64,000 nt of DNA. Origin: Curvularia clavata. Lineage: Eukaryota. Shown here piece by piece: positions 16,276-43,654 of the stretch. How positions within the stretch are numbered: position 1 is the first letter of the stretch; every line of letters starts with the position of its first letter. A program made the translations under genes and the position numbers. The DNA lies in NCBI GenBank assembly GCA_023920165.1, contig CP089278.1:2356001-2420000 (forward strand), written 5' to 3'. The notes under the pieces were generated by a model, which was not told the origin of the DNA, did no database searches, and saw nothing but the letters and a program-made list of their open reading frames with translations.

Positions 16276-16555
16276 CGTGGTGCGGTGTGGTGTGGCGTGG
16301 ATTGGGCGTGTCGTGAGGGAGGCGTGTTATGATGAGAGATCAGCAGTCACGTATGCTCTGCTTGACTAATCGTGCACGGACCATATATTGAGAACCACGG
16401 AAACGCCGCGCGACGGGAACCCGACAAGGCAGCATGGCATCACTGAAAAGCCGTGGTTGCTAGTGGTGCATGAAGGTCATTTGTGGTGACCAAGCACGTA
16501 TGGCAAGTTTCAATTATTAATTTGAGCACTTGAGGCTCGTCTATGTATGCAATGT

Positions 16556-19500: not shown

Positions 19501-19873
19501 CGACGCTGTACTCGCTGCGTGCCTCGTCCATGGACTCATCTTGGCCATTTGGATGCGACATGACGCCGTTGGTCACGTGGGATTCGGGTTTGATCTGCTT
19601 CAGAGGGCGGTCGGTGGCGGGTGAGGTTGGGTGTTGCTTGCGCTTGACAGTGCCATTCTGGTCCATTTGCGGCGAGGTGGGTGCGGACGGGGGCGAGTGG
19701 AGAAGGCGGCGGTGGGCGCAGGCGAGTGCACTCGTGCTTGTGCTAGGCAATGTCGCAGGCGATCGGGTGCGAAGAAGGGCGAGCGGTCGTGACACGGGCA
19801 ACAGGCGTGAAGGTCTGGTGGTTGCGCAGAAAGATTGTTTGCAGGCGGCGAGTGAGGCTCGGCCAAGCAGCAT
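16556..19873 (-). CDS. nma111: Nma111/Ynm3 HtrA-like serine protease with PDZ domains (57-nt intron 16859-16915; alternative start at 19666)
   Basis: [40 protein letters not shown] catalytic triad motifs and duplicated protease/PDZ halves; GTAAGT..CTAAT..CAG intron. Confidence 0.96.
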
Positions 19874-20428
19874 GCCAGCCCTGGGGGAGCGCTGTCAAGA
19901 TTCTGGGGCCGCTACGGTGCAGCGGCTGCCAATTGCAAAAAGTACAAGTCACGCACAAAGAAGTGCCGTCGATGGTGAGTACAGATGAAAGACGGAACGT
20001 GCTTGAAGAGCCCTGCAGCGGCATAGTTCGCGCTGCGGCCCACCCCTGTTCTCCCTTCGCCGCACGTCGCGACCAGCGTCATTCTCGCCGCTGCACCGGG
20101 CCCGTCACTCATCCATGTCATCACGCCCAGCCACTTGACCTGTGAAACGTGGTCCTGTCTGGCAAATACACGGCATCATGCATTCATGTCCAACTACGAA
20201 TCCGTCTCACTCTCTCCGACGCTCTGTCTAGTTCTGGCTGCTTGAGTGTTGCCTGGAACAAGCAACAAAACCACTGGCTGTCAATACTCATCAGGACCGC
20301 CCAACTGTCTCTGCATACGCCGGTCCAGGTCCCGCCATCCTGTTGAATGTTTGGGAACCAAAGAAGTGACTCCGACCCTGAAACAGCCGTACCAGTCCCG
20401 CTCCGTCACATGGCCGAGTCGAGTATGC

Positions 20429-20992: not shown

Positions 20993-21631
20993 GCTGACTG
21001 CTTTCTTGTGTTTGGGTAGCACGAGTGCAACGACAGAATAGCTTGTTGTTGTAAGTGTAGTAGATGGTGGTTGAGGAGTTGAGAGGGTTAGGGCAAGGAA
21101 ACAGAGTGGGCTACCAGCCTTTATCTACAAGAGACTGGCTAGCAATTGTTGGATCATCCTCATAGTGAGTTACCGACATGCAGTGAAGTGGTGGAGTGAA
21201 GGTGAGCTTGACGGAGAAGGTGAGGTTTGTGTCATACATCACACGATCCTCACAAGTGAGCCTTCCCTCTCATTTAAAGGGCTTCCTTAACCTCCTGTGG
21301 ATATTTGGTACAACTGCGCATCAGATTTATGTAGTCTTTCATATTCTTTACGCTTCACCCGTGATCTTCTTCGCAATCTCAATGCACCACCCAGAAGCAG
21401 ATCGTTTGCCAGTATGCTGTCATATGTATATCAAATGCAAATCTGCGACATGGTTCGACAACATTCCAGACTCGCATTCCTCATTAGAAGGTAGCTGCAA
21501 CTTCAAACATAGTCACGTGCTTAGCCAATCCCCATGTAGCACTAGGCCCACGTAGACCCTAGCCTCGTACTTCCACATGATACTACACCTCCTTAAGCCC
21601 ACACTCCACATTTCTGACCCCAGAAGTAGCA

Positions 21632-22306
21632 ATGCTGGAAATAGCTTGCTTCAACGCCTCTTCCGCCATCGCATCCGCTCAGGCGGGTGCTGATCGCATC
21701 GAATTATGTTCTGACTACGCTGCTGGCGGCGTCACTCCTTCACTCTCCACCTTGGAAGACGTCCGGAGTCAGACGACAAGTGCAGTCAATGTCATGATCC
21801 GGCCGCGCGCAGGCGACTTCAATTACACGGCTGAAGAGTTTGCAAGGATGGAGGCGGAGGTAGTCTCACTCAAGCCCTTTGCTAGCGGATTCGTATTCGG
21901 CATTTTGGATCCCAACCATCGTGTGGATGAGGCACGCAATCATAGGTTGGTCCAGTTGGCTGCTCCACTGCCATGCACCTTTCATCGTGCGATTGATGAG
22001 ACGGACGATCTAGATGAAGCAGTTGAAGCGGTCGTCAGGTGTGGGTTCAAGAACATATTGACAAGTGGTAGTGCCGGTAATGCACTCCAGGGAGCTGAAA
22101 GATTACACCAGCTGCAGATGAAATTTGGGCATTGCATCTCACTGATTGCTGGTGGTGGGGCTAGAAATGGGAATATCGGAGAAATCAAGAGGAAAACTGG
22201 GGTACCGTGGCTCCACTCGGCTGCTATAACACTCCCAGGCGAAAATGTTGATGTTACGGAGGTGAGGAAGATGAAGGATTCACTGGTGGAGATAGAGCGA
22301 TCTTGA
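21632..22306 (+). CDS. cutC: CutC-family (copper homeostasis) TIM-barrel protein
   Basis: MLEIAC, GADRIELC, GGVTPS, VMIRPRAGDF, TFHRAID, ILTSG motifs. Confidence 0.95.
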   Translation: MLEIACFNASSAIASAQAGADRIELCSDYAAGGVTPSLSTLEDVRSQTTSAVNVMIRPRAGDFNYTAEEFARMEAEVVSLKPFASGFVFGILDPNHRVDEARNHRLVQLAAPLPCTFHRAIDETDDLDEAVEAVVRCGFKNILTSGSAGNALQGAERLHQLQMKFGHCISLIAGGGARNGNIGEIKRKTGVPWLHSAAITLPGENVDVTEVRKMKDSLVEIERS

Positions 22307-22505: not shown

Positions 22506-23309
22506 CTACAGGAAAGCGTAGATGAGGGCGCCGAACACAGACATCTCGAACGACCTTGCATCCACATGTGCAGCAGCTCCGGTCGGCTTGGCGGCCTTGG
22601 TTTCTGTCACAACAGCCGTCTTGCCGGCAACAGTCGTAGCTTGGGTGATTGTGGTGGCGGGAATCGTACTTTTGACCTCCTGGCCGCTTACAGTTGCTGT
22701 GATGACGCTCTCAGGAACAGTGGTTGGTGCCGTGTATGTTACTGGAGGGAGAGTCGTAGTGTATACAACGATCGACCCAAGTTCAGTCTCCGGGATCGCG
22801 CCGCCAACGCCGGTACCCGTGAATTGTGGGGGAATCGACATGGTCGAGGTGTTGGGCTTCTCAGCTTCGTTGCCGGAGTAAATGTTGGCAGTTTGTCCGT
22901 CTTTAGTATAGTCTCCGCTGACCAGGTTTACGTCAGTGCCTCCGGAGTGATATTCTCCTGTCGCAATGGTTCCGTGCGATCCGTCGGGGAACTGGAAGTT
23001 GGTGGTGAACTTGTCATAGCACATGGGAATGTTGAGGTTCTGGACGTTTACGCAGTCGAGGCTTGGGTGGCAGGCGAAACCCTCGGCGCGCTCGTCCACA
23101 GAGCGCTGTTTGAATGAAATGCCCTGGACCGACGCTACGACGTTGGTGTAGAGCGAGGTGAGACCTGGTCCCACTGAAGGGGGTGTGTCGGTTGTAGCAC
23201 CCTTGGGCTTGCAAGCCTTGTAGGATTCATCTCCATCTCTCTTGAATTCCTCAAAGGGTGATGCGACAGCCATAGCCGCAAGAGCGAGGGACAAGTACTT
23301 CGGTGACAT
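22506..23309 (-). CDS. Secreted, probably GPI-anchored cell-surface protein
   Basis: N-terminal signal peptide, KR processing site, 4 Cys, Thr-rich stalk, hydrophobic C-terminus (TGAAAH...VFGALIYAFL). Confidence 0.8.
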   Translation of the reverse strand: MSPKYLSLALAAMAVASPFEEFKRDGDESYKACKPKGATTDTPPSVGPGLTSLYTNVVASVQGISFKQRSVDERAEGFACHPSLDCVNVQNLNIPMCYDKFTTNFQFPDGSHGTIATGEYHSGGTDVNLVSGDYTKDGQTANIYSGNEAEKPNTSTMSIPPQFTGTGVGGAIPETELGSIVVYTTTLPPVTYTAPTTVPESVITATVSGQEVKSTIPATTITQATTVAGKTAVVTETKAAKPTGAAAHVDARSFEMSVFGALIYAFL

Positions 23310-24885
23310 GTTGAGGTACGGCGGTAAACTATGGCAAGACGTCGGATGCTGAGGGAAAATTATGTAGATTATTCGACGAAATGCTGAACGATGGACGACT
23401 ACTAGAACCAGGGACGAATGCCGAGGGCAAAGGAGCGGATATGGAAGCGAGTGACAAGACGGTTGATCCGACAGCCGGGGATAGGAGCGAGCGGTCTCAA
23501 ATCTATATCACGACGACAACCTGTACGTGCGGTATTAACAGGGTTTATTTAGACTGCCTGTTCCCATGCCGAACTAGCCAAAAGGTACCATGCGCGGTGT
23601 GGCGCTATCTGGTGGATGGCACACTAGTATACGACAGGACAACCATCGACCGACTGGTCTTGCTTTCTATCGCGCAATCACTAGCTACTCTCCCGCTTTC
23701 CATATGGACCATATTTCGCATGGGATTCGGATGAAAACAGGTTGCGCGATCCGTGAACCTGCAATTCTGGAAACCTGTTCGTATTCGGAAATCCTTCGAA
23801 ATGGTTAGCCGTAATCAACATCCAAGTCTGCACCGGCAGCCAGTCGTCGACGAGCATTGACACGTCCAGGCGCCTACAGGTGGGGTGATAGCAAAATCTT
23901 GTGATTCGCTTGGAAATCGTTCGGCAAGTGTTCATTTCTTTTTAGCTTGGAACAAGTCGCAATTGAATCAATAAAGAAATGCGGGTTCACGTCATACGGG
24001 CCGCCTTGATTCCAACACACGGGATACGTTGGTTGGTTCCTGGCAGCATACCCACTTCATGGGTGGGCTCCCACGCCACATTGCCGTTTCTTTCTCTCAT
24101 CTTTCTTCGCGCTAGCACGCGACCTCGATTTTTTCTGTAACTCGCATGATTCCTTTTGAAGAGCGGCAAGTGGGACGATAAAAGCAGTCGGATATTTGCT
24201 TGAGCTTGATGTCTATGCATCTGCAACCCGCCCCTCCACCCCCCATCATTAGGAAAAGAATAGCAATGCCACCACAAGATTGCCAGCTGTGATCACAGCA
24301 CACTTGATCTAAACCTAAAGCCATCTCGCGAACACGTAGCTACACACGTACAAGAACTTTGCAGGAGGCTAGTCACGGCTAGTTCGGCACGTATCGACCT
24401 AACCCTAAACTCATTCCCCGGGTTGGACGACTTTCCAATGCGATTTCGTTAGGAGAAGGCATCTAATGATTGCTTCCTCGTTCACAGGCCATCTCATTGG
24501 ATAGAGAATATGTATTTTGGTTTCCCCTTACCGTTCTTTTTGCCAATTAGCGTGCACCGGACTAAAAATAGGACCAAGCATCAAGTCGGGCACTGGTTCA
24601 GGGCCTCGTAGTGCACCATAGGGACATCGAGGTGGCAGCTATGACTACGTGTTATCAGGGGTAAAGGTGAACAGGGAGAGCGATGTGCCTAAAGACGATA
24701 TGCCTCGGAGCTTCCCTTGTCAAACATCTACACAATACAGATCAACAATCTCCATACAGTTAACAGATATGGATACGAAAAAGGCCAAGACGTTATTGTA
24801 CGGCAAACATCAGCGGAATCATGTAGCCGATCGGGATCACGTGACCTCTCCACTCATACGAAAAAAATTCATTCACTGCAAAAAG

Positions 24886-25004: not shown

Positions 25005-25893
25005 ATTAGACATGTTCAGTTTTGGGAGATAAATCTACCGGGAAATCATTTCTCGAGCAGAGTTCTGGTAGAGCTACATGACGACTGCAGACTCTGGAAC
25101 TACCCTAGGCTTGTTCTGGGGTATTCTTTCCTGGCTTTGTCTCCTGTAGTAGCCAAGGACTGGATGTGTGTGTTGAATCTAACGTCGGTATTGGCGGAGA
25201 GAGCCATGCCAGAGGCTTGTGTTGATGAGACAGCATAAACGGAGCAATGTTAGTACCAGAGGTTTATGTTGTTCAAGCCACTGGCCGTAGCGTGTACGAG
25301 GTATAGGGGATCGCACTTTATCAGTCCCCAGTGGGAGTACAGGCTCTCCACATACTTCTTGAAGGATTTTTAAGCGGCCTCGAGTAATGTCCATGATCTG
25401 TGGTGCTTCAGTACGTAGTGTGGGATGTCCATGACTTGGATGAACTGCCCGCTATTTTACTACTGGTGTCACGTGTTATACAACCTTTGGGTACCCCCTG
25501 GAGGGCGCTTCTCTCTGCCTCCACAGCTTCAGCACATTACTTGGCAATATGGAATCGACTCCCACTGCGGCATACAACACAGTCCGTCACATCATGAACC
25601 TGCATAAAATTACTAGTCGATTCGGACAGTAGGTGTCGTTGTGAAGAACACTGATCGTATTTCCAAGGGTATCTTCTCCTGAAATTCTTTGCATGATATG
25701 ACGATCGAAGACAGGAATTCCGAGATTTCTACTGGTGTTTTGCTATAAGTAACCAGGGTTGCAATTCTCCCAACGACCCGGACTCTTTTCCACAAATATA
25801 GGTGGGCCAACAAGAACATGCTTATTGGAATTGCCGCGCGTACACGGAACCAAGAAATAGCAGTGTATCTTTCTATTTGAACTGCGGCCAACA

Positions 25894-26173
25894 CTAACAC
25901 CAGAAAGTGGTCTGTAGTTGTTAACACGTTGTCGCAACTACGGGACTGAGGAATACGTACACAGCATTGCTTCCTTCCTAAAGCAACATCTTCATCGTAA
26001 CAATATGTGTAACAGGGTATGGAAAAGTCGACTTCGAAGCAAGGCAAATCAAGTTTCATCTCCCCCCTCTTAGTGCATACACCGCAGAGTCTTTGGGTGG
26101 GTTTGAGAACGACAGCTGTGGCGCTTGGTAAAATGATGAGCGCCGATATGACCGTAGTAAATGATATCTTCAT
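25894..26173 (-). CDS. Small secreted cysteine-rich protein, 76 aa, 8 Cys (intron 25912-25960); effector candidate
   Basis: MKISFTTVISALIILPSATA signal peptide; GTACGT..TTAAC..CAG intron joins ...RKQCC to TTFWC*; TATAAAA upstream at about 26248-26254. Confidence 0.7.
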
Positions 26174-27616
26174 GATTGGGAGAATAGACGAGACAAGAGG
26201 CGTAAAGAGTTGTATACTAGCGAGTCGCCAGTGGAAAGAAAGACAGGGTTTTATAGGCTCACGGGCGAAAGAGCTGTAAAGTCTGGTAAAGGCTGTGTGG
26301 AAGATAAAGTGGAGATTAAAATAACTGCGACAACTGCCTGGAGAGAAATAGGAGACCTGTTGTCCAACTACCCAGGGCCTTGGAACTAACTGAGCATCAA
26401 CTAGAGCTCTTTGAGCCACGCTGCGGTATAGTTCAGGAGCCGATGGCTGAAAACAATTGCTTGAAGGAGACGCCATAGTAGAGATACACATAATTCATGC
26501 ACTCGAATGTTGTTCACGGCCTTGGACTTTTGTCAACTCAATGTCGTTGAGGCGTATACAGTCATCACCACTGATAGAGGATTTGCTATCTACGGTGTCG
26601 CCCTCAATAACATGACGGCTAAACCAGAGCGACTTCTTAGCATAATCGAATATTCACTGCCAGCGGCATAGCTAATCTTCGGGTCCTCACAAGATACTGC
26701 GCTAAGCTTTCTCAAGACCCGCAATGCCAAGCACTTAACGCTTGCTTAACCTACATACACCTAAATGCAGCGCGGCGATCAAGCCAATAACACGTCCGAG
26801 GAAGCACGTCCGGGTGCTGGATAAGGCACGGGATGTGTCCGGAGGCTGTGCAGGCTAGAGAAGATAGGTGCTTGAAGATAGCTTGGCCACACCAGGGTAC
26901 GAACTTGGATCTGAGGAAATACTCTACGTAGTTGGAGAAAGTTGTGTGGATCGGTGGTTCAGCAATCGCAATGGACACTTGACCCTGGATCCTAAATGCT
27001 AGCCTTTCTGCTGTTTGACCCTCATGGACTACGTTGATGGTGCGAAACAAGCTGCAGCCATTGCACTCACGACCTTCGTCTGAATTGGTTTTTGAGTTGT
27101 GGAGTCTTCCTGTACAAACAGTAAAATCGGAAAATCAAAACAAGCTTATCTACACTGCCAACACAGTAAAAGACACTGCGACAACTGCCGCTACTTCAAA
27201 AGTAGAATTCTAAGTACTAAAAACCTAGTAAACAGTAAGTAGCTATATCAACTACAACTACTTTGAAAAGTGGTGGGTTTTAGTCGTGGGAAAGGGAGTT
27301 CCGGTGGGGAGTGGAGAGGCGGGAGGCGATCAAACACTGGCCAGACTCACCCTTAGCAACGCCAATGACATCATAGTGGCTGTACCTGCAGCCAGCATTG
27401 ACAGCAACTTCCGACTCGTGTACAAACCTGCTGTCGTCCATCACTAACCGCCTAGTGTGCCTTCACCACTGCTATTTCTTCCCGGGCACCGGTCTTCCTG
27501 TTCTCGCGTTACTTTCTGTTCGTCAGCCTGTCGCTTTGAACCCTTTTCTTAAACGCGAGTAGCACGCGTCCATCCTTATAAGTTTTACTCTTTGCTGTCA
27601 TCATTACAAGATCAGC

Positions 27617-29261
27617 ATGGTGCATCGAAACACTTTGCAGCACCTGCTGCAACTGAGCGCAACCCTGGGTCTCGCTACGGCAGTGGCCCTACCAGAGCCA
27701 ACGGCCGTCCCCGCAAAGGTTGAAGCTCGAGAGCCAGCTGTTACTCCAGCGGCGATTCGATTCGACGGTCGGCATAGCTACGTTCAGAAGAGGGACATCA
27801 TTGACGACATCAAGAGCGGAGTCGAGGGCTACGCACAGTCACTGGGCAGCGTGCTGGGTACTGATCTGCCAAGCTTCTTCACGGACGGTAAGCAATCCTC
27901 GCGTGGAAAAGTCTCGCGCTAGTACTGCTAGTAAAGCTTACACTGACACTTCTCTAGGTATCCCGGGATGGTTCGAAAACCTACCTACCGGCTCTCAAGT
28001 CCTCAGTTCTCTCGGTATTAACGATGGCGATTTGGATTCGAAGCCTACACAAGTCCTCAACATTCCCCCGTATGCGAACTGGACCGACCAGGGCTGGAAC
28101 GTGCGCTTCCACGGCAATGTCTACAAATACCCTGATATCTCTCAGGAAAAGATCGATGATCTGGCCAATGTCTTCTTGATTGACACAAGCGTCGACAAAT
28201 TGCCTGCAGATCAGCAAGCGCAGGCACGTAACCTCACCCGCTCCATCTTCGTCGTCCAGCAAGGTGACCGCAATGTCTCAATGAGTCTTGAGCCCTCGCC
28301 CATGCAAGGCGCCGACGGTGAGCCTGGCGGTGGCAACTCTATCCAGGCACCCGGTGGTACCCAGAATCTTACCCTCCCATATCCGACCACTGACCAAGGC
28401 GATTTCGACGTCTTCGTGCCCATCGAGTTGAACGGTCTCATTCCCGGCAACCAGACCAACAATGTTCAGCGCCTCAACGTACACACTAACGGCACTGACA
28501 GCGGAAATGCCACTGCCTTCCTTGTTCCGTCTGAGGGTATCACCTTCGTCTCTGACATTGATGACATCCTGCGCGTGACCAAGATTTACGAACCTAAGGA
28601 AGGTCTTCTCAACTCCTTTGCCCGCCCTTTTACTCCTTGGATGAACATGCCTGACATTTATGCCAACTGGTCTCGCACTCTTCCCAACAACACACACTTC
28701 CATTACCTAACCACAACTCCTGAACAAGCTACCCGTCTCTACATGGACTTCATCTACAAGACCTACCCTGGCGGCTCCTTTGATACACGCCCGCTCAACT
28801 TCTCCGATGTCAAGGCTACTCTCTCAATTCGCCAGTACCTCCTCAATAAGGTTTTCGAGACCTTCCCTCAGCGCAAGTTTGTCCTCATTGCCGACACTTC
28901 AAACAGCGATGTTATGAGGGACTATCCTCAGCTCGCCCACGATCATCCCAACCAAGTTCAGTGTATCTTCTTGCGCAACACATCAGCCACCGACGACAAA
29001 ATGTGGTTCCCTTACAACACTGAGGGTTTCAAGGGTCTGAACAGCCGCAGCTACATGTTCTTCCGTGTACCAGATGACTTGACCGGACTGGACATTGCCA
29101 ATGGACAGTGTCTGAACGAATCTATTCCTCAAAACGTTACATTCTCCAGGCAAGCAGAGATTCTCGGTATCCATGGAGACAGCGCCGGTGCTAGGCTGGA
29201 TAGCGGAGTCACGCTTAGCTTTGTGCTAGCGCTCGTTGCTGCCGTTGTTCTGTTCATGTAA
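27617..29261 (+). CDS. Secreted/GPI-anchored App1-like (DUF2183, HAD-fold phosphatidate phosphatase-like) protein (intron 27888-27957)
   Basis: Signal peptide and KR site; FVSDIDDILRVT, FHYLTTTP, FPQRKFVLIAD, VQCIFLRN blocks as in App1; C-terminal SAG + hydrophobic tail. Confidence 0.85.
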
Positions 29262-29561: not shown

Positions 29562-31754
29562 CTACATACACATGCTCTCCTCAAACCTCCTAACAACCTC
29601 CAGCATCTCAGCATCTAGTCTGCAGCCGCTCAGGAAGGTTACACTGAAGGGTAATACACCTTGGTCTTCATCTTGCCCACTCAGTTCCGTAATGGGGTAC
29701 GTTCCCGCTGGTACAGAGACACCACATAGGTCCAATACGTTTCCGCAGTGTGTAAACTCACCCAAGATACTGTTCTTCTTAATCGGATCAGCAAGGACCT
29801 CTTCGATTTTCCAGTGCGTGGGCGTGGTAGGCACCACAACGACGTCGACCCCAGCCGCCGAATATGCGAATACCTGCTCCGCCTGCCGAGTATACATGGC
29901 TTTGGCTTGGAGGTCACGGTATGCATCCACGGCAGAGCTTTTCCGACTCACGACCGCGTCCATGAGCTGCGCGGTTACCGGGTGTAAAGCCGAACGATTC
30001 TTTTCGAGAAAATCGTCGGGAAGCGAAGCTAGTCGTTCTGATACAAAAGTCCCATCGTAGAGCAACTGTCCTGCTTTTTGGAATGGCGACCAATCGATCG
30101 GCTGGAGGACGCCGCCTAGCGCTTGCAACTTCGATACCGTTTCATTAAACATGCGGCGTGTGGGCGGAGAGCAGATGGCAAGCGCTTCGGACGGCGGGAT
30201 ACCAAATTTAAAGGTACGTGACTTTGCACCAATGCTGTTGACGTGGCGTTCAAAAGTTAACTCGGGTTTTGCGTAGGGGTCAAGTGCGTCATAGCCTTCC
30301 AGTACCTGCCACAAGGTACGAGCATCGGATATAGTCTTTGTAGAAAGCGCGATACAGTCGAGCGATAAACACGCCGGAGTGATACCGCGGAAAGAAATGG
30401 TGCCCCTTGTGGGCTTGAAACCCACAATGCCATTCAGCCCAGCGGGAACCCTCCCAGAACCTGCCGTGTCTGTGGCTAAAGAGAAAGACACGAGATTTGC
30501 GCCTACAGATACTGCGCTGCCACTGCTCGACCCGCCGCTTATGTAGTCCTTGTGATACACAGAGTGAGGTATACCGTACGGGCTACGACATCCCACTAGA
30601 CCGGTAGCTAACTGATCCAAATTCGTCTTGCCGATGAACAAAGCACCTTGTTCAATGACCTTTTCGTATACCACGGCAGAGGTCGAAGGCACATGGGCGA
30701 GTGGCGGACACGCGGTCGTAGTGGGGAGACCAGCGATATCGATGCTATCTTTTACGCTAAAAGGAATGCCAAATAGAGGAGGTAGGGCATTTCGATCGGG
30801 AAATCTCATGATTAGCTCCCTTGCAGCTTGCATGATGGTTTCGCGTGACTGCAGATGAATCCATACTGCTGGATCAATCTCCTTGTACGCTTCGATCTTC
30901 TTGTAGATTGCTTCGACTACTGTCAGAGGTGAAAGGCCCTTCTTATATGCTTGTCGCAGACTGGACATCGTAAGATCGCCATCAAATTCGGGCGGCGTTT
31001 GAGGAGGTGTAGAGTCGATCTGATTTTGTTTGGTGGTGAAAGGCTCGAGGGCCTTAAGGAGGGGCTCTAGACTGCCGATGAAGCCGAATAGACCCTGCGA
31101 CCAGTGTATCATGTCCAGTGTTGACTTTTTGAAGCACGCATCGTTGTATCCACTGGTGGCCTCCTCGATTCCACAACACTCGAAGCCACGATCGTTTGCT
31201 TCTCGAATGGTTGTAGCAAAGCAACATTCAGTAGTTACTCCTGATACTATGAGATGTGTGATGGCTCGCATCTTGAACTGATGTAGAATAGGCGTATTCC
31301 AGAAAGAGCCTTTGCCAGGCTTGTCGATGACCACCTCGTCGGGTAGCGGTTTTAGCTCATCAATGATTTCATGTCCATACTCCCCTCTGATCAATAGGCG
31401 ACCCAGCTCTCCCGTGTCACCAATGACGAGTTTGTGTTGGGTATTACCGGGCGCTGCTTCTTGCCGGATAAGCTTTGACGAGGGGCAGTCGGAGAGATCT
31501 GGTTTGTGCCCTTCGCGTGTGTGAACAATGGTCATGCCAGCACTTCGACATGCATCCAGGAGCCGTTTGGTAGGGGCAATTGAGGCTTGAACTGCTTCCA
31601 GGTTTCCACCCTGTATTTCACCAAACCCTTGAGGGAGTAAGAAGTCGCGCTGCATATCAATAACGAGTAATGCAGTGTGGGCCAGAGGAAAGGAAAATGC
31701 ATATGGCTTTGCGTCAAAAGACACCATATTGGGTGTTGCTGTTGCCTTCGCCAT
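29562..31754 (-). CDS. Fusion of isochorismatase-family cysteine hydrolase (triuret/biuret hydrolase-like) and allophanate-hydrolase-type amidase
   Basis: IDMQRDF, HTREGH, DKPGKGSF, GVTTECC..TTIREANDRGFEC; then PFSVKDSID, GKTNLDQLATGLVGCRSPYG, GGSSSGSA, TDTAGSGRVPA amidase signature. Confidence 0.9.
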   Translation of the reverse strand: MAKATATPNMVSFDAKPYAFSFPLAHTALLVIDMQRDFLLPQGFGEIQGGNLEAVQASIAPTKRLLDACRSAGMTIVHTREGHKPDLSDCPSSKLIRQEAAPGNTQHKLVIGDTGELGRLLIRGEYGHEIIDELKPLPDEVVIDKPGKGSFWNTPILHQFKMRAITHLIVSGVTTECCFATTIREANDRGFECCGIEEATSGYNDACFKKSTLDMIHWSQGLFGFIGSLEPLLKALEPFTTKQNQIDSTPPQTPPEFDGDLTMSSLRQAYKKGLSPLTVVEAIYKKIEAYKEIDPAVWIHLQSRETIMQAARELIMRFPDRNALPPLFGIPFSVKDSIDIAGLPTTTACPPLAHVPSTSAVVYEKVIEQGALFIGKTNLDQLATGLVGCRSPYGIPHSVYHKDYISGGSSSGSAVSVGANLVSFSLATDTAGSGRVPAGLNGIVGFKPTRGTISFRGITPACLSLDCIALSTKTISDARTLWQVLEGYDALDPYAKPELTFERHVNSIGAKSRTFKFGIPPSEALAICSPPTRRMFNETVSKLQALGGVLQPIDWSPFQKAGQLLYDGTFVSERLASLPDDFLEKNRSALHPVTAQLMDAVVSRKSSAVDAYRDLQAKAMYTRQAEQVFAYSAAGVDVVVVPTTPTHWKIEEVLADPIKKNSILGEFTHCGNVLDLCGVSVPAGTYPITELSGQDEDQGVLPFSVTFLSGCRLDAEMLEVVRRFEESMCM

Positions 31755-32107
31755 TCTCTCCAATCGTGAGGTGCAAGACAAAGATCAAGATGACATATGG
31801 TAGACAGTGAGGAAATGCCTGAAATCTGCTGGATTTGATGGTAAGACGAGGAAACCTCAGACATAAAGCGGAACGTTTCATCTTTAGAATAGATTCTACA
31901 CTGACGAAGATTGATGTCCGAGAACGGCTTATGCAACAGGCCTACGGCGGGCGGCGGCGCGATGATTTATGTGGGTCAGCGGGGTACACGGCTTTTGTTT
32001 GCCCTTACTCGAAACCTCCATATTTTAGCCAAAGGCTAAGTCATCATTGGCGACTGAGACAGTTGCACAGTATTAAAACACTAGTAGTTACCAAATTAAG
32101 CTTAGCT

Positions 32108-32319
32108 TTATCTGTCAAAGATTTAAGGTATTGAACACATTCGTCGGAACTAGTACTGGTCGAGATAAGCTCTCTCCAACTACCCCAGTATCCCCAATAC
32201 GTGGTACCTGACAATATGGTTCACTCAATCATGCCTCCGCCAACGCTTATACGCCTTTCCGCGCGTACGTTGGATGTGCCGACGGTCCCTATCTTGATAG
32301 ACATGAGCCCTAACGATAA
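32108..32319. promoter_or_regulatory. Cluster of HGATAR (AreA/NIT2-type) sites in the divergent hydrolase/permease promoter
   Basis: TTATCT 32108, AGATAA 32163, CTATCT 32289, TGATAG 32295, CGATAA 32314. Confidence 0.55.
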
Positions 32320-32473
32320 AAACTTCCGATGCGGGTATCTGCGGGGACGATCTTGATACGCGGAGAACGCCCTAGCTGGATCATCGTTGGTATTAAACGT
32401 ACCGCAGAAGTATGGAGTCCAGCAAATCTGGCGGTATTCCTCAATTGCTACTGACGTTCCAATATCTGCGACC

Positions 32474-34259
32474 ATGTCAGTACTCAAGGCGAGGCTTGCG
32501 CCTTACTTCCATCTAAGAGTTCCATTCAAGAGTGGCAAGTATGGCTCCCGCTGGTCAAACAAAGGTGAGAAATCATTCGAGACTCCTATCACTCAAACAT
32601 TACTAATAGCTGAACGTATGGTAGACATGGACCCTATCCCTCCGGAACAACGTACCTGGGGCGGACTCGATTACTGGGCATACTGGTGTTCCGACCTTTT
32701 AGCCCCTCCTCTAGCATCTACCGTCAGCAGTGTCATGGCTCTAGGCTTTACAGCTAGAGAAACCGTCCCCATTGTGTTCTTCGGCTTTACAATGTGCGGC
32801 GTGGTCATCACACTCACCGGAAAGATGGGCGCCACGTATGCTGTTCCCTTCCCCGTCATTGTTCGCAGTGTCTTTGGAATGTACGGTTCATTTCCGGCTA
32901 TATGTATTCGTGCATTTGTTGCGGCCATGTGGTGTGCCATCCTTACGGTACAAGCCAGCAACTTTCTTCAACGCTGCATCGAGGCCATATGGCCAAGCTT
33001 CACCACTTTTCCGAATCATCTCCCTGAGAGCGCTGGTATTGATTGTGAGTCTCAATAATCACTGAGATCACGGAAGATACTGAAGGATGATAGCTGCCGG
33101 GCTGCTTTGCTTGTTCCTGTATTGGTTTCTTCAAACTGCCCTAGCCCTTATGCCAATTTCTAAGCTGCGGGTTCTCTTCTGGATCAAGGCCATCATAGTC
33201 CCACCGACCTTCCTTGCCTTATTCTTGTGGGCTGTCGTCATCACAAAAGGGTGAGTTTCTCGTTCTGCCAAAGCAATGTGACACGCTGATGCAATGGTCA
33301 GTGGCGGCCCGCTCATTAAGGGAGAAGCGAAGATGACTTCGACGTACATGAATACCGCCTACTCAGCCCTTTCGGGACTCAACGCTGTTGCTGGACTGTT
33401 CTCATCGCTATCCGTCAATATGCCCGACTTTGGAAGGTTCTCAAAGGACAAGCTTGCCGGTTACCAACAGTTCCTTGCTCTTCCCATTATCGGAACGCTT
33501 GGAGCACTGACACCGATATTTGTGACTGACGCCCATTCATACTTGTGGGGTGACTTCGAGTGGTATATGCCGAATGTCATTGCAAAATTTGACTCCCGAG
33601 CCGCAAAATTCTTCGTATCCGCCAGCTTCCTCCTTGCGACCATCGTCAACCAGATCGCGGCTGATACCTATCCGTTTTCAAACGACGTAGCTGGCATGGT
33701 ACCCAAGTATATTGACGTCACCAGAGCTACTATATTCCTCTCCATCTTCTCGGTCGCATCCACGCCTTGGAATATCATTAAAAATGCTCAGGGTCTGCTC
33801 TCCTTCCTGAGTGGCTACTCCTGCCTTATGGGACCCCTGGCAGGCACCATGATCAGTGACTATTACCTTGTCAAGAAAAGCAAGCTCGACGTCGATCAAC
33901 TATACACCCATCATGGAATATACTGGTACAACAAGGGTTGGAATTGGAGAGCATATGTATCCTTCATAACTGGTTTCGCTCCTCTCATGCCTGGCTTTGC
34001 AAAAAGCATCAACAACACACTTGATATTGGTGGTGCTTGGAAGATTTATACATTTGCGTGGATCTTTGGGTTTTTCCTCTCGCTTTCTACGCACTATGTC
34101 ATATGCACATATATTTCAGTGCCGACGTCGTCGCTGATCGAGATTGCGGTGTACCCGCCGCAACTTGAAGATGTCGCCTCGTCTATCATTGAAGGCGAGG
34201 AAGTCTCAACCAAGGAAAAGCCTGTCTCAAATGCGAAGGGAGTAAAAGAAATGGTCTAG
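32474..34259 (+). CDS. NCS1-family (Fur/Dal4-like) nucleobase/allantoin permease (introns 32565-32624, 33045-33093, 33251-33301)
   Basis: WSNKDMDPIPPEQRTW, VPFPVIVRSVFGMYGS, NMPDFGRF, PWNII, GTMISDYYLV, YWYNKGWNWRA motifs; multiple hydrophobic segments. Confidence 0.93.
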
Positions 34260-34670
34260 ATGTCATCTACCGAAACCTGTATGCTAGATATTTGCGTTTT
34301 CATAGAAAGATAGAGATCAAATCACCGTAGATTCTCTTCGTTATAATGTCATACATGGCAACTTGAGCATCATGAAGCTGACGTTACTCTTAGTGATGTA
34401 GATGATTAATCCCTGCTGATCGGCGCTCTGGTTGGCTTGGCCTTTCCCGCTTCTTATCGTACCTCAATGGCCTCTCATTCTTACTCCGATGGCTCATCAG
34501 GTGGCCCTCAAATTAAGAGCTTCACCAGTAAAATTGGAGTAGTCGTGCAACTCAGTGCCGAGGTCGTCTCCATGCATCAAGCTCGTAGCGCGCTAGAAGC
34601 ACCACCAGACGATGCTTAGGCGGATACGAATCATCCACTAACAACGTCAACCACGGGTATAACACCACCA

Positions 34671-36821
34671 ATGCAAGCGGATCGCATGTGCCCCACAGAA
34701 TCTGACACTTTTTGCTCCTTATCAGCAGCCATGGAAGTCATGCCCGATGAGATCTTCCCGTCAAGCCACTTCTCTGCACCAATAGCCACCTCTCAAAACA
34801 CCACCAACGCAAGGTCACGACGTCCATGCGACCCCTGTCGCCGACGCAAGTCGCGATGCGAAAGACCAGACGAGGACCGGCCCTGCCTTCTTTGCCGGTT
34901 CCACCAAAAGGAGTGCACATTTAACGAGAATCCTCCGCCACGAAAACGGCGAGCATTGACTATCAACGAGAGCACCGAGCACAGCGAGTCTCTTCCGGCC
35001 TTAATAGCATATTCACCAGATAGCAACAGGGGCAATACTGCTGCGTCTACATCACCTCAGGACGCAACCATTAGAATCCGACAGGATCCACCAATAGATG
35101 ACTACGCAAACCTGCCCGGCCCCTCACTCTTGAAAAAGACGCTGGGTTTACAGACAAGCCGACACAGCCGTCTTCTTGGATCTACATCGGAATATGAGAA
35201 GCTTCTCCTTTCTTTCGAGCCAAACCAAAACCATCACAATGCCAATTCATATTTAGGACAGTCTACGTTGCGACGAGTGGACATCAACGCTACAACGTTC
35301 ATCTCATTACCTGATGCCGAATCGCTCAACAACGATCATGACATCCAAGATCTGGACGCCATAGAAATGGCCGTCGCGCCTCATGGATCCGCTCTAGTTC
35401 ACCTTTATTTCCGGATTGTCCACCCGAGCTTTCCAGTCTTGCATAAGAAAGTCTTTTTGGAGAAGTATGCGCGCACGCACCGAGAGTTCTCACCACCCCT
35501 CCTTGCTGCGGTATATCTTCTGGCTCTTGACTGGTGGTCGTACTCGAGTGAGCTAGTTCCACTATCGAAGCCTGATGTATCTCATCTGGAAGGGCTAGCC
35601 ATGAAGTCATTCAGTAATGTTGTCCATCGCCCAAAGCTTTCGACGATACAAGCGGGTTTGCTGCTTCTGCAGCGGCATAAGGGCAATAGCTGGGCTATGA
35701 CGACTCAACTTGTTGGTCTTGCCCAAGACATGGGTCTCAACCTCGATTGCACAGAATGGCAGATTCCGAGCTGGGAGCGTGGGCTTCGGAAGCGCTTGGC
35801 CTGGGGTGTATACATGCAGGATAAATGGGGCTCTCTCATCCATGGTAGGCCCTCGCACATTACGCCATCCGACTGGGAGGCGCAACCGCTGAATGAAGAT
35901 GACTTTCCCGAAAATGCCGGTGATGAAGATGACGAAGATGGAAGCACAGAAGTCGAGAAGGGACGCATCTTGTTTTGCTACATGGTCGAACTTACCAAGA
36001 TCTTAGCAAGAATTCTAACAACATTCTACACGCTAAAGGCTGAACGCGAACTTGCGTATCGTGCAAATGAAGGGGTGCGATCGCTGCTCGATACTGCGAA
36101 GCCCCTGCAGCTCGCTTTGCGCCAATGGTATGTCGACATGCCATCCACTCTCAGAATGGACAATATTCCAGCGAGAAAGCTCTCCAGCGTAGGATACCTC
36201 CATCTTGGCTACTACGCTGTTGAAATGACGTTGCATCGGCGCATCATCCGTTCAGTATCATCTGCAGATGATGTAGAACTTTCCATGATCTGCCGTCAAG
36301 CAGCACAGACACGACTTACTTCAGCCATGAAATTTGTGCAGTCCTTGAGGCCCGAGCATCATCAATCGTTTTGGTATTCTGCATCAATTTACAACTTCGT
36401 ACTTATTGGCTCTTTCATATCCCTGTTGTGGGTAACGTCTCGTACTGAGGAAGAAGCTGCCGAGTACCGGAAGAAGCTGGATGAATACAAATGGACGCTG
36501 CGCCTTTCCAGCAAATCAGCAGATTTTCTTGGGCGAGCGCTAGCGTCACTCAATGATTCAACTGTCGCATTGGTACACAAGGCTGCCGAAAACCTCGATT
36601 CAGGCAGAATGTTGAGCGCTCATCAGCACGCGAGGAACCGTCAAGCTTCGACGGCAGCGAGCCAGGCTCATCTGGATACGGTTCGATCTACACCTTATGA
36701 TTTAGCGTTCGTCGGAGTGGAGGCCCGTGAGAGCACTAGAGAAGCGCCTCTGGATGAACACAACATGGATGGGCACTCGTGGTTCCAAGCGCTGACGGGG
36801 AGCGAATTCCAAGGCGCATAA
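34671..36821 (+). CDS. Zn(II)2Cys6 transcription factor, Dal81/TamA-like
   Basis: RPCDPCRRRKSRC...CLLCRFHQKECTF binuclear cluster; LYFRIVHPSFPVLHK, LRKRLAW..YMQDKW..LIHGRPSHI fungal-TF middle region; start may be 34731. Confidence 0.9.
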   Translation: MQADRMCPTESDTFCSLSAAMEVMPDEIFPSSHFSAPIATSQNTTNARSRRPCDPCRRRKSRCERPDEDRPCLLCRFHQKECTFNENPPPRKRRALTINESTEHSESLPALIAYSPDSNRGNTAASTSPQDATIRIRQDPPIDDYANLPGPSLLKKTLGLQTSRHSRLLGSTSEYEKLLLSFEPNQNHHNANSYLGQSTLRRVDINATTFISLPDAESLNNDHDIQDLDAIEMAVAPHGSALVHLYFRIVHPSFPVLHKKVFLEKYARTHREFSPPLLAAVYLLALDWWSYSSELVPLSKPDVSHLEGLAMKSFSNVVHRPKLSTIQAGLLLLQRHKGNSWAMTTQLVGLAQDMGLNLDCTEWQIPSWERGLRKRLAWGVYMQDKWGSLIHGRPSHITPSDWEAQPLNEDDFPENAGDEDDEDGSTEVEKGRILFCYMVELTKILARILTTFYTLKAERELAYRANEGVRSLLDTAKPLQLALRQWYVDMPSTLRMDNIPARKLSSVGYLHLGYYAVEMTLHRRIIRSVSSADDVELSMICRQAAQTRLTSAMKFVQSLRPEHHQSFWYSASIYNFVLIGSFISLLWVTSRTEEEAAEYRKKLDEYKWTLRLSSKSADFLGRALASLNDSTVALVHKAAENLDSGRMLSAHQHARNRQASTAASQAHLDTVRSTPYDLAFVGVEARESTREAPLDEHNMDGHSWFQALTGSEFQGA

Positions 36822-38492: not shown

Positions 38493-39101
38493 TCACGCCC
38501 AGGTCTTGGAAGTATTGAGCCCAAGCTCAAGGTGCTGGGCGATGGCAGACGCAAAGTCACCGCTCACATTTGATGAATGACGGCGACGCTCACGACGTAT
38601 TTGATGTTCGGCCTCCATGAGACGCTCCTGGATCCAGGCACGCTGCTTTTCGTCGTTGCGGATACAGTCGGTATTCAGGAGCTCGGTAAGTGTGGCTACA
38701 ATCTGCTGGTTGATCTCAGCGAGCTTTTGGGACTCTTCTGTATGCATGTCGTCGACACTGTTACGTGGGGCAGTGCTGGTCCTGGTGCCGGTGGGTATTG
38801 GATCACTCGCCATGGGATACGGCATAGAATGATTCGAGGATGTTGGCGACGAGGAGAGGGATTGAAACTCCGGCGAGTTGGGAGTCATTGGAGCATTGAA
38901 TGGGATCTCCATCGCCATGCGGCGTTGAAGAGCCTCTTTCTGGGCAGAGAGCAGCATGTACTTCTGCATCGATTGATGCTGAGTAAAAACGTTAACATAG
39001 GCCGCTTCATGAATACATGTGGGGATACATACCCGACACAAAGCGGGTCTCGACATGGGTGTCATGGTTTCGTTTGACTTAGTATCGTCTGGCATTTGCA
39101 T
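38493..39101 (-). CDS. Hypothetical protein (probable 54-nt intron 38979-39032)
   Basis: Open frame with helical C-terminal block KLAEINQQIVATLTELLN...RAWIQERLMEAEHQIRRERRRH; GTATGT..TTAAC..CAG intron signals. Confidence 0.7.
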   Translation of the reverse strand: MQMPDDTKSNETMTPMSRPALCRVCIPTCIHEAAYVNVFTQHQSMQKYMLLSAQKEALQRRMAMEIPFNAPMTPNSPEFQSLSSSPTSSNHSMPYPMASDPIPTGTRTSTAPRNSVDDMHTEESQKLAEINQQIVATLTELLNTDCIRNDEKQRAWIQERLMEAEHQIRRERRRHSSNVSGDFASAIAQHLELGLNTSKTWA

Positions 39102-40650
39102 TGTTCGTAGTTTGTAAGGTCTGATTTCTGATTGTGTGGGGATGTCGGGTTCTAGTAGATATACCAGTTGGCAATGCCAAGAGCGTTACGTGCTGGGAGA
39201 TCGGCAAGACCTAAAGGTGTGGGTACCAAAACTAATCAGTGTGGATTAAAGTGGAGTCAAGTCGAAGAGGTGATGCTGCTGTGAAGCCTTGGTAAGGGTT
39301 GACGCGCAAGCTGTCGGACAAGCGTGATATGATGGATGGATTCCAGAGTTTGTTCGACAAACAAAAATGGTCTTCCGTTTGGAGGGCTGCTGGCAACTTA
39401 AACACTTCGTAACGAGAGAGCCATGACGTCCAGCTAGCTTATCCTGTCCAAGACACAGCGCGGCTGAATCCGCCCTTCCCAGGCTCTGAGCCAACAAGGC
39501 CCGTTTCGTACAACCTTGTTGGGATAGCCAGGAGCTCTGAGTGGGTAGATTCATGATTGGCAGAGGAATCGTCTTTGTGGATCGACATGTGGTTGTGAGG
39601 GGGCTTCTAAGCGACATCACGTCACCGGTAGGGAACTCGATGTAGCGTTCTCGGCGCTGAATCCCGATCACGTCCAACCAGCATACCCTCTGGGAAATCC
39701 GTTACGAGAATCGTGATTCTATCCTGTACCTGCATGAATGCGAGCAAAAAAAAGTTTGATTTGCCTCTCAACATGGTTGAGCGACTCGTGTCAGCATCGG
39801 ATTTTTTTCAGCGCTCCATCACAATTCCATCATAACACAAATTGCCATGTGTTACAAAGGAATGACGTCTAACCTGAAACCCGAATTACCCCCGTCGCAC
39901 ATTTCCACACCCCTGGCTAAGCCATAGAGACCCCTCACACATCACTGCCAGCAGGGCAAATAGGCGCTCGGCAAAGACATTCAATTTCATAGTCCGGCCA
40001 GTTGGAGGGCGCACAGAAAGGGCAACGTCTGATTGCTGCGATCTCACGCCAACGCAAGTAGTAGCCGGGAAGAGATTCGTAGCTGTGGCAGCGCAAAATC
40101 CGGTTTGGAACGCCACATTAGTGGCTCAGTCTCACGTGTGTGCCGCGCCCCGGCTTAGCGGTGACGTCCCAGTTCCAACCAGATCCTGCGGGTTGAAATA
40201 CCGCGGAGTGTGATCGTCGCCTGGAGCGTATCAGGGTGCTCTGGTGTATTGTAGATTGGGCTTCTAGATGAAGGTCGAAATCCTTCGCTGTAAAACCCGT
40301 ACGTCACATAGAAACGCCACGTTGGTGGCACGCATGGATAGCGTGGCCTTTTTGCGCAAAATGACCCTGCAGTCTGTATTGTAGAGGAAATACAATCAGG
40401 GAAATCCACCTTGGACCCTGGCGGGCTCCATGGCTAGTCCCGTCTATGGACGCCTGCAAGGTTCGGTGTCATTGTTATCCAGTTGACGTTAGTCTTTCGG
40501 CGTGAGTCTGTTGGACTATCACGATCCTACATGGACTGCGCCTATATCCGAAACCCTTTGACGATGATAGGCGGAAGAAGCAGGGCAAACGTGCGAGTCT
40601 TTGTGCTCACATCATCGAAGATGGGGTTGCAACAGGAGTGCATGTGCATG

Positions 40651-41259: not shown

Positions 41260-43006
41260 TCTACGATAGCGTTGGGGCGGATGTCCAGTGCCTACTTGGG
41301 GAGGGCGCCCTTTGCCGCCGTGGATGCAGGCAATAGGGTGCGAGCAGGGCAGAGGTGACTGTGATTCAAGTGTATGTATTGAAGGTGGCGTCAGGAAGGG
41401 CGTTGGTGTCGGGACATGCTGACGGCAGGCTGAAGTGGGCGGCCGGTGTGGAAAAGGGAGAGCATCGTGGGCGGCAGCACCTCGGAGCAGCAGCCGCTAG
41501 CGCGCGCCTGCATTGCCTTGCCTGTCCACAATAACCTCAACACCCCGAAGCTACGCCTCACCATCTTCACCGCGACCCGAGACGCTCCCACGGCCCCAAG
41601 GAAATGACAGCCATTTGCGGTAAGTCGATGCCGGCCACACGCCAGTGGAGATGCGATTGCTCGTGTTGTATGGGGCACTATTTGCTCCTTCACATATCCC
41701 ATCCAAGCCTGTGCCGCCATCAACGCGCGATGGCTTACATACGTTACGGTAGCGCCCACTAGACTCATGTGTGCCGCTCGCGACAATAGTGCATGCGAAA
41801 TTACACAGCTGCCTCTGGACTCTGGACTGCCGTCCGTAAGCCGTCAGCAGATCGTGGCCGATCCGACTTACGGCACGACAAAGAAGTTTATCGACAAAAG
41901 CTTCTTGCAACGACCGCCATATAGAAGCCGCCGTCGAAGTCGAGCCTCGTTTCCATCTGCTCGCTCTGCGAAGATTTGTAAGGCGACCATCGGGACAGTG
42001 CTGCAGCGCGGATGTCGGCCCTTCGCTGGATTTAGTCAAAGGTCTAGATGCTGCTCGCGATGCAGGAACCCGTCCGTATCCACATAGAGCATAGGCCAAT
42101 GACATGGCATCGAGGCCAACTGACGGCTGGATTTCGCGCCCTCTCCTTTCAGCAGGTGGTTATTATTGCTCGGACGCGGGGAGACTTGTCTATGCGTGGT
42201 CACTTCGAATCTCCGCGCTGACGGATCTCGCTGGGCTAGTCTATTTTTGTGGCCCCTCCCCCTAATCGTCGCTATGTTCAGGTGTTCAGCGATGACGGCC
42301 AAGAGCGGTGTGGCCTACAGATCCCTACGACGCGTCACGAAACCCACTTACCAAGAGGCTCAACATTGGCGTGGTCGTCCTGCATGTTCGTGCTGCCGGC
42401 TCTCTCTGCCTTGATGCGGCGGCGGATCATAGGCTTCAGGAGCGTCGAGCCTAGTGGGTGATTGAGCAAATCCGGTGTGCACAAGTCGCCCGCTAGTCGA
42501 CAGCTCGCCCAAAGCAGTTAAGACAAGAGTCGAGATCCTGAGACGACATGAGTCGCTTGGCAGGGAGCTTGTCAAACTCATTTCGTTTCTGTCCTGCATC
42601 CTCCCCCTGATTGGCTCGCTCAACAGGTATCAATAAACGACTCATAACGGCGGCCAATGTCGACACTACCCACAGCTTCCCCTTTTCCGTACTGTTTCTG
42701 CGCACAGCCCACTGGACGGCGCCATCGGCACGCCATGCCAAACTTCTAGCGATGCTACCAGACGAACGCGGAAATGTCCCTGTCCCCTTGTCCCCTGGGG
42801 GGTGAGCATTCTCGGCAAGGCCAAACTCGAGCACAGTTGTATATAATGTCTTCCCCATCAGCACCTCTGATTCTTTCCTCACCACACACTCACTACACTC
42901 GCTAATACCCGGTTATCACCGATCACATTCGTTCTCTACGACCTCCATCGCCTTTTACTTAATACCAACCGTATTTAATACCAACCCCCCAAACCCCACA
43001 ATCAAG

Positions 43007-43654
43007 ATGCGTTCCTTCGCCGTCGTTGCTGGCTTCGCTGCCGTCGCCATTGCTGCTCCTCACTACGAGGCTGCTTCCAGCTCCGCTCCCGTCTACCCGG
43101 TTGAGACCCCCAGCTCTGCTCCTGTTTACCCAGCCAGCTCTGCCCCGGTCTACCCAGCCAGCTCCGCTCCCGTCTACGCTGCCTCCTCGGCTCCGGTTTA
43201 CCCCGTTGCCTCTTCCTCGGCCCCTGCCTACACCACCACCGAGGTCATCTCTGCTACCACCTACGTCTGCCCCGAGGAGACCACCATCACCTACGGCCCC
43301 AGCACCTATGTTGTTAGCAAGAGCGGCACCCTGAGCATCCCTCAGTACACTGCCACCTACGTCCACTACCCCGTTGCTTCCGCTCCTCCTGCGCCTGCCA
43401 AGTCCACCCCTGTTTACCCAGTTGCCAGCGCCAGCAAGCCCGCTTACACTCCCCCGGCTTACTCTGCCGCTCCCCCTGCTCCTCACTACCCTGCCACCAA
43501 CGGCACCCAGCCTTCCGTCCCTGCTGCTCAGGGTACCGCCACTGGCACCAAGCCCACTGCTACCAAGCCCGCCACCCCTGAGTTCACTGGTGCCGCTGGC
43601 AAGGCCACCGTTGGCTTCTTCGCCGTTGCCGGTGCCGTCGCTGCTTTCTTGTAA
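43007..43654 (+). CDS. GPI-anchored cell-wall protein with SSAPVYP repeats (Ccg-6/Sed1-like TTEV..TTYxCP motif)
   Basis: Signal peptide, strongly biased codons, YTTTEVISATTYVCPEETTITYG, C-terminal FTGAAGK + hydrophobic tail; TATATAA at about 42840. Confidence 0.88.
   Translation: MRSFAVVAGFAAVAIAAPHYEAASSSAPVYPVETPSSAPVYPASSAPVYPASSAPVYAASSAPVYPVASSSAPAYTTTEVISATTYVCPEETTITYGPSTYVVSKSGTLSIPQYTATYVHYPVASAPPAPAKSTPVYPVASASKPAYTPPAYSAAPPAPHYPATNGTQPSVPAAQGTATGTKPTATKPATPEFTGAAGKATVGFFAVAGAVAAFL
43078..43231 (+). repeat. Coding tandem repeat, 24-27-nt units encoding (A)SSAPVYP
   Basis: Five SSAPVY units plus one SSAPAY in the translation. Confidence 0.85.

Follow-up and report, generated by a model that had tools for sequence, protein, structure and literature searches.

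What would a fungus import and dismantle with a single polypeptide that joins a cysteine hydrolase to an amidase, encoded back to back with a nucleobase-type carrier and accompanied by a putative nitrogen regulator? The question is raised by three neighbouring genes in a 64,000-nt stretch of DNA from Curvularia clavata (assembly GCA_023920165.1, contig CP089278.1, positions 2,356,001-2,420,000 of the forward strand), here called the window, whose numbering we use throughout. A sequence-only reading of the window had described a self-contained module for scavenging nitrogen from a ureide, and this role holds up as a prediction. The cluster is real and conserved, although apparently never described as a whole, and varies on the triuret/biuret pathway of bacteria, with two binding sites rebuilt. 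We read it as a system for the import and stepwise deamination of triuret/biuret in nitrogen scavenging, a reading to which we give about an even chance. What the analysis shows directly is the anatomy of the locus, family placement, intact catalytic residues, splicing and conserved linkage.

The fusion gene, combining an apparently TrtA-derived cysteine hydrolase with an AtzF-type amidase, is a single intronless open frame of 730 amino acids (aa) on the reverse strand (29562-31754), and its closest named relatives are those of Stemphylium (88%) and Bipolaris (86%). On the same strand lie the segments for its isochorismatase-like hydrolase domain (residues 9-237; 31044-31730) and its allophanate-hydrolase-type amidase domain (residues 260-727; 29574-30977), within which Pfam recognizes Isochorismatase at residues 27-207 and Amidase at 279-687. 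A divergent spacer of 719 bases (31755-32473), which includes the 5′ leaders of the two genes and the promoter that they share, leads to the Fur-type NCS1 permease of 541 aa on the forward strand (32474-34259), which has GT-AG introns at 32565-32624, 33045-33093 and 33251-33301. The third gene, for a Zn2Cys6 transcription factor of about 696 aa, follows on the forward strand at 34731-36821. Intron joints were sought in public contigs from four runs of two studies, which are not on record as RNA and inform on splicing, not on level or co-regulation. The first permease joint was recovered in three of the four runs and the second and third in two each, while a 69-base intron in the leader upstream of the regulator (34657-34725) appeared in two, with 28 letters on its short side, so that the regulator's likely start shifts to 34731, giving 696 aa. 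All three genes lie where the earlier reading had placed them.

Among solved structures, the hydrolase domain is best matched by TrtA of Herbaspirillum sp. BH-1 (PDB 6XIX, 6XJE; PMC7948467), with 204 bits for 6XIX against 181 and 171 for BiuH structures and 88 for RutB. The full-length model overlays TrtA at a root-mean-square deviation of 1.3-1.4 Å with 46% identity; folded alone, the domain reached a mediocre predicted local distance difference test (pLDDT) score of 76. Conservation was mapped on the 119 best-scoring other proteins of 3009 found, using TrtA positions as numbered in the accessible text of PMC7948467. Besides the fold, these orthologues share with TrtA the catalytic triad, D33 (TrtA D24) in 117, K145 (K129) in 117 and C178 (C162) in 118, the remainder being gaps. 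They also retain the TrtA-specific F35 (119/119), E160 and Y187 (118/119 each), together with F29 and E72 (both 119/119) and K132 (115/119). The residues that hold the far end of the substrate in TrtA are replaced, Q202 by Ser in all 119 and N41 by Gly in 113, and around them L39 has become Gln (116/119), V161 Cys (118/119), A201 Trp (118/119), I205 Leu (119/119) and G203 Gln (108/119) or Glu (10/119); in the C. clavata protein the remodelled distal pocket comprises Q48, G50, C177, W218, S219 and Q220. As aligned, the pocket appears TrtA-like at its catalytic end and rebuilt, then held fixed, at its far end. Unlike TrtA, this domain is fused to an amidase, has no BiuH partner and is eukaryotic. 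Oxalurate, considered as a substrate, was disfavoured, since the pocket has gained no new basic residue and many relatives are acidic there.

The earlier reading had named a BiuH/TrtA-type hydrolase. The family was right, and the structural scores above point to a TrtA derivation, as does a FastTree phylogeny of 137 sequences and 215 columns, rooted on one distant paralogue and sampled from every fourth of 80 genome loci, representatives with 195 or more aligned residues and a few other loci. In this tree the fused clade is monophyletic with support 1.0, nested among TrtA-motif sequences and separate from BiuH. The BiuH half of the claim did not survive: BiuH (PDB 6AZO, 6XJM) shares the fold, the triad and 41-43% identity, and its product, allophanate, is what the domain fused here would act on, but the fungal hydrolase domain scores 213.6 bits against a cut-off of 370 for the BiuH family NF050097, and none of the BiuH lid consensus residues (Y, Y, D, T) nor an equivalent of Q215 is present. 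The pocket signature of the fungal proteins was seen in none of the 80 best bacterial loci from genomes; every one of these retains the TrtA motif, and hence no operon context names the substrate.

By sequence the second domain scores 329, 323 and 249 bits with allophanate hydrolases and 92 with AtzE, and in a fold search allophanate hydrolases occupy ranks 1-10 (38% identity for ranks 1-7), with AtzE at rank 19 (21%). Its AtzF family scores, 460 against a cut-off of 487 and 426 against 511 bits, fall short because the C-terminal domain is absent, the alignment covering positions 6-447 of the 600 in the AtzF profile; the AtzE scores are 138-142 bits. Of the AtzF/AtzE amidase proposed earlier, the AtzF-type assignment therefore stands and the AtzE one falls. 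With AtzF and the allophanate hydrolase domain of urea amidolyase (PDB 4CP8, 4GYR, 4ISS) it shares the amidase-signature fold, a Lys-Ser-Ser triad and a Tyr/Arg pair, and K335, S409, S433, Y566 and R574 are invariant in 119/119 orthologues, S433 aligning with the S177A site of 4IST and Y566/R574 on both 4GYR and 4CP8. The Tyr/Arg pair of AtzF was reported by Lin and St Maurice in 2013 to bind carboxylate. In contrast to those enzymes, the fungal amidase lacks the C-domain, has a cysteine hydrolase as its N-terminal partner instead of a urea carboxylase at its C-terminal side, and carries TH where the others have TN near the C-end. The short AtzF of actinobacteria, which has the TH motif in common with it, was considered as a donor of the amidase; the amidase tree gives this no support, and we claim no donor. 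The full-length model of the fusion (pLDDT 92, predicted template modelling score 0.91), with its short loose linker at residues 243-252, suggests that the two domains are held in a fixed arrangement. AtzF accepts allophanate, malonamate and biuret, and C-truncated AtzF is equally active on biuret at 50 mM (PMC3944691, in the part available), so that the pathway could close without BiuH.

What, then, would the carrier bring in? The permease has a PF02133 domain, in agreement with the NCS1 identity first given to it, and is of the Fur type (FurE, Mhp1). In FurE, uracil is held by W130, Q134, T254 and N341, and Q137 lies along the path by which it enters (bioRxiv 10.1101/2022.03.28.486045); these positions were mapped through Mhp1 and the paralogues of this genome, FurE itself being outside the alignment. 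The permease orthologues keep the equivalents of W130 (61/63) and Q137 (63/64), but the equivalent of Q134 in transmembrane segment 3 is Leu in 62/63 and that of N341 in segment 8 is Gly in 108/119 and Asp in 11/119. The cluster permease forms a subfamily of its own, 25-34% identical to the other Fur-type carriers of the genome, which keep the canonical binding residues where aligned. The loss of the Q134 and N341 equivalents argues against ordinary transport of uracil or allantoin. At two distant loci (L024, L027) the fusion is paired with a different, canonical NCS1 protein (31-36% identical); linkage between fusion and NCS1 carrier would thus have arisen with two different subfamilies, which we count in favour of a joint function in triuret/biuret use.

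The regulator carries a Zn2Cys6 cluster and a fungal transcription factor domain (Pfam), and its homologues bear the automatic label "nitrogen regulatory protein OTam", which together support the proposed kinship with TamA/Dal81 at the family level. A second TamA-like paralogue, 47% identical, lies on another contig, and all of the 120 homologues listed are nearer to the cluster copy. The divergent spacer had been credited with five HGATAR sites of the GATA-factor type, and it holds exactly five (32108-32319; starts 32108, 32163, 32289, 32295 and 32314), three of them within the span of the spliced permease contigs and so probably in the permease 5′ leader. This number is within chance for the spacer itself, being reached in 699 of 5000 dinucleotide shuffles (p 0.13-0.14), although only 17 of 633 sliding 719-base windows across the 64 kb have as many; we rejected the sites of this spacer alone as evidence (p 0.14). 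Across orthologous spacers HGATAR is enriched in seven of nine (5-8 sites, p <= 0.007), which amount to about four independent lineages, three spacers being near-identical and two others close; the L017 spacer has four sites (p 0.12). The spacer also contains GCCTACGG followed by CGG repeats (31940-31947, forward strand). The motif GCCT[A/C]CGG, first spotted by eye in the same five spacers, is the only one-degenerate 8-mer common to all five compared, and any shared motif arose in 9 of 200 shuffles. It recurs in two held-out upstream regions (L027, L015) and is absent from eight others, four of which belong to loci without linked permease and regulator; none was found within 1 kb upstream of the urea carboxylase gene or the hydrolase paralogue described below. 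CGG triplets fit Zn2Cys6 binding, and GCCT[A/C]CGG is a candidate target of the cluster regulator.

How widely is this arrangement kept? The fusion is present in 17 of 79 metagenome loci. Nine loci have at least 4.9 kb of sequence upstream, and five of these show fusion, permease and regulator in the same order while the other four show neither partner; among the shorter metagenome loci three have an adjacent NCS1 gene and two a regulator downstream, one of these a weak match. Consecutive accessions join all three genes in Patellaria and Aulographum and the fusion and permease in Geopyxis and Eremomyces, the Eremomyces regulator being 324 accession numbers away from the pair; consecutive locus tags join fusion and permease in seven further genomes, and in Trichoglossum and Capronia permease and regulator are no more than two locus tags apart. 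The accession and locus-tag cases were chosen by eye and give no rate. Gene order is thus kept in several fungal classes, not everywhere, and the co-conservation for which a synteny check had been proposed is borne out by the five long loci and the consecutive accessions. "Self-contained" was too strong a word for the module, given the four long loci without linked permease or regulator, the one genome with an unlinked regulator and, further, the position of the amidase as the genome's sole candidate allophanate hydrolase for a urea/guanidine carboxylase route.

Fusions of a more distant kind were seen in Clonostachys and Aspergillus californicus, in the yeasts Sugiyamaella, Dipodascopsis and Limtongia, and in Meredithblackwellia, a basidiomycete. 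In 9 of 19 distant or reference fusions (the yeasts and four relatives), and in the Aspergillus one as well, the amidase triad is lost and the hydrolase motif intact, and eight of the nine with a lost triad have a BiuH-type Tyr at position 35. Loss of the amidase but not of the hydrolase triad in yeasts would be expected if the hydrolase product were allophanate, which other routes can clear. The catalytically depleted amidase domain is retained as 200-430 residues (P0379, P0382, P0384-P0388, P0394, P0402, P0378), and such domains possibly have a structural role. Other architectures were seen in passing: tandem TrtA-TrtA or BiuH-TrtA fusions (P0361, P0363, P0366, P0370, P0372, P0380), a TrtA-type domain joined to one resembling ureidoglycolate lyase (P0482) and a BiuH-like domain joined to one of the amino-acid-kinase family (P0422).

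Genome-wide scans of the 32 Mb assembly (G000) set the cluster in its metabolic context. Of 28 amidase matches the fusion amidase is the only AtzF-like one (428 bits; next 132), and the genome encodes urease, a stand-alone urea carboxylase and three DUF1989 loci. No gene exceeded the BiuH family cut-off of 370 bits; AtzH gave no match, its control giving one, and AtzD, for a cyanuric acid route, gave none here or in the control genomes. With no BiuH above the cut-off, an enzyme that only hydrolyses triuret would leave three of the four nitrogens locked in biuret, unless one of the two fused domains handles biuret. The nearest paralogue of the hydrolase domain (L002; G000:C2:1306730-1307398; 41% identity) has BiuH-type lid residues, Glu at position 202 and 236 bits against the cut-off of 370. 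Glu at this position is the signature of guanylurea hydrolase (GuuH), and together with the urea carboxylase and the three DUF1989 genes this paralogue suggests a fungal guanylurea/guanidine route. It stands alone and adjoins a histone H4 gene, and elsewhere in the genome (L198; G000:C7:1010197-1010952) an isochorismatase domain lies within an open frame of 1118 aa.

The closest bacterial counterpart that we found is an operon of Actinomycetota with a GntR regulator, a short AtzF, TrtA and a permease (L123:4568-8328, L143, L146, L148:3896-8292, L164, L165). The genomes that carry it often have no BiuH. In the loci compared (all of these but L146) it combines, like the fungal cluster, a regulator, two hydrolases and a permease, has no BiuH in the locus and has an AtzF without the C-domain where fully seen; it differs in its unfused genes, its intact TrtA motif, its unrelated permease and the fact that the amidases are not sister groups. 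Its membrane protein of 526-535 aa has no Pfam or NCBIfam match and is a candidate for an unclassified triuret permease family. Among 14 bacterial genomes with TrtA beside AtzF, chosen for that pairing and including some incomplete assemblies, nine have no BiuH above the cut-off. Since the fungal domain is not sister to the actinobacterial AtzF in the amidase tree, these bacteria are a parallel and not a shown origin.

In the mechanism that we propose, the permease would import triuret and/or biuret, and C178 of the hydrolase would cleave a terminal carbamoyl group to give ammonia and an unstable N-carboxy product, by analogy with TrtA and BiuH chemistry. Triuret would thus yield carboxybiuret and, after loss of CO2, biuret, and biuret would yield allophanate. 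The fused AtzF-type domain would then deaminate allophanate and probably biuret or carboxybiuret too, so that one polypeptide may replace the bacterial set of TrtA, BiuH and AtzF. Carboxybiuret, dicarboxyurea and allophanate are unstable (PMC6219798), which is a reason to keep both activities together. Expression would depend on a GATA factor when nitrogen is limiting and, at the GCCT[A/C]CGG site, on the TamA paralogue of the cluster. On the features tested, the system would work like TrtA plus AtzF and falls outside TrtA, BiuH and AtzE; with both the hydrolase pocket and the permease site remodelled, neither protein can simply bear the name of a known one.

Several points weigh against triuret and biuret. 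The equivalents of Q202 and N41 are gone, and TrtA mutants Q202E and N41Y retain less than 10% of activity, while BiuH relies on the same Gln, placed deeper (PMC7948467), which leaves triuret or biuret as a best guess for this hydrolase. The Ser would enlarge the pocket, and with an aromatic gained beside it the site might just as well accept another ureide, or one that bears a ring. In the hydrolase tree the TrtA grouping as a whole is weakly supported (0.585), with a local joining of 0.93 and a root of a single sequence, and the amidase tree does not bring the fungal domain together with the actinobacterial group that lacks BiuH. The activity of AtzF on biuret was measured at 50 mM (PMC3944691), and channelling has been ruled out for urea amidolyase (PMC5770610), so that fusion does not imply it. 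Growth or enzyme data for fungal members were not found in the literature searched.

The main rival keeps the two-step chemistry and changes the substrate to another ureide derived from oxidised purines or pyrimidines, such as formylbiuret, from ring opening of oxonate or 5-azauracil, or an N-carbamoyl ring compound. Ring compounds are the usual cargo of NCS1 carriers, and a permease site that is remodelled yet strongly conserved would suit a cargo of this kind; so would the loss of the Gln that binds the far amide of triuret and the aromatic residue that most clade members have at TrtA position 201 or 202. Formylurea, too, is the best alternative substrate of TrtA (PMC7948467). Yet the examined loci hold no extra conserved ring-opening gene, domain 2 requires an amide-carboxylate or biuret-like product, and the acidic residue at 203 in many relatives speaks against a carboxylate such as oxalurate. 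We regard a substrate of this class as possible though doubtful. Going one step further, we may tentatively imagine an old and widespread fungal pathway for a natural ureide, a triuret-related oxidative nucleobase product so far unrecognised as metabolite or nutrient, in which a single polypeptide would have a new cysteine-hydrolase specificity, the carrier would belong to a new NCS1 specificity class, and a TamA paralogue would sense the ureide and bind GCCT[A/C]CGG.

Perhaps the three genes do not form one pathway at all, the amidase serving mainly to hydrolyse allophanate as a housekeeping step of the urea/guanidine carboxylase route and the hydrolase and permease dealing with a minor side substrate. 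The idea fits a genome that has no second AtzF-like gene but does have a stand-alone urea carboxylase, three DUF1989 genes and a guanylurea-hydrolase-like paralogue, and it fits the four long loci with a fusion and neither partner. However, the hydrolase domain is conserved as well as the amidase and outlasts it in yeasts, the promoter motif of the cluster is missing from the 1 kb upstream of the carboxylase and the paralogue, and Aspergillus species have a urea carboxylase without such an amidase and Mycosphaerella the converse (PMC3073912); we consider the idea unlikely. Less probable still is a hydrolase acting on amidino-urea of the guanylurea type, yielding carboxyguanidine, which DUF1989 deiminases would convert to allophanate for the amidase. 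Downstream guanidine genes are present in the genome and many distant members have Asp or Glu just after position 202, but that residue is Gln in 108 of the 119 close orthologues, the hydrolase domain appears to be TrtA-derived, and a separate paralogue already has Glu at 202 itself, the mark of GuuH.

In the literature covered, the characterised routes for breaking down triuret and biuret are all bacterial. Kept across the Ascomycota, and with fusions related to its own among early-branching yeasts and in one basidiomycete, the cluster would be much older than urea fertiliser, which suggests that nature itself supplies compounds of this kind. A stand-alone amidase was listed in three Dothideomycetes by Strope et al. 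(2011; PMC3073912), whose main text, as far as available, is silent on an isochorismatase or cysteine hydrolase domain, on biuret and on the cluster; judging by the species and by the sole AtzF-like gene here, these are very probably the same genes as the fusion. TrtA itself is said to occur in some fungi (PMC7948467, in its accessible part, citing Robinson et al. 2018), and no publication on the fusion or the cluster was found in the literature searched, which lacks most subscription journals. If triuret/biuret scavenging is correct, the orphan fungal allophanate hydrolase of 2011 gains a function and the NCS1 family a non-nucleobase specificity, with a bearing on the fate of biuret and triuret as fertiliser impurities in soil. 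The set needed for a direct test is small: a single enzyme, a carrier, a regulator and a DNA site.

Around the cluster, an APP1-domain gene with a C-terminal hydrophobic tail (27657-29261, forward strand) converges on the fusion and adjoins it in L013 too, and one contig spans from its 3′ side into the 3′ end of the fusion. A recent horizontal island was rejected, since the GC content of the cluster (0.51) and of its third codon positions (0.52) resemble those of its neighbours and the flanking APP1 gene is likewise adjacent in L013. Open frames of 230-525 aa at 5135-6712, 22506-23507, 25613-26494, 38493-39185, 42806-43654 and 56530-57402 had no Pfam match. Pfam identifies KAR9 (7643-11023), a DWNN/RING protein (14587-16326), a PDZ-trypsin protease (16556-19894) and CutC (21581-22306) before the cluster, and a WD40 protein (52044-53942), the FRQ clock protein (57360-60047), a pyridine nucleotide oxidoreductase (60951-61925) and Mis14 (62873-63817) after it. 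An arginase exon (47582-48184, reverse strand) lies 11 kb from the cluster and is probably unrelated to it.

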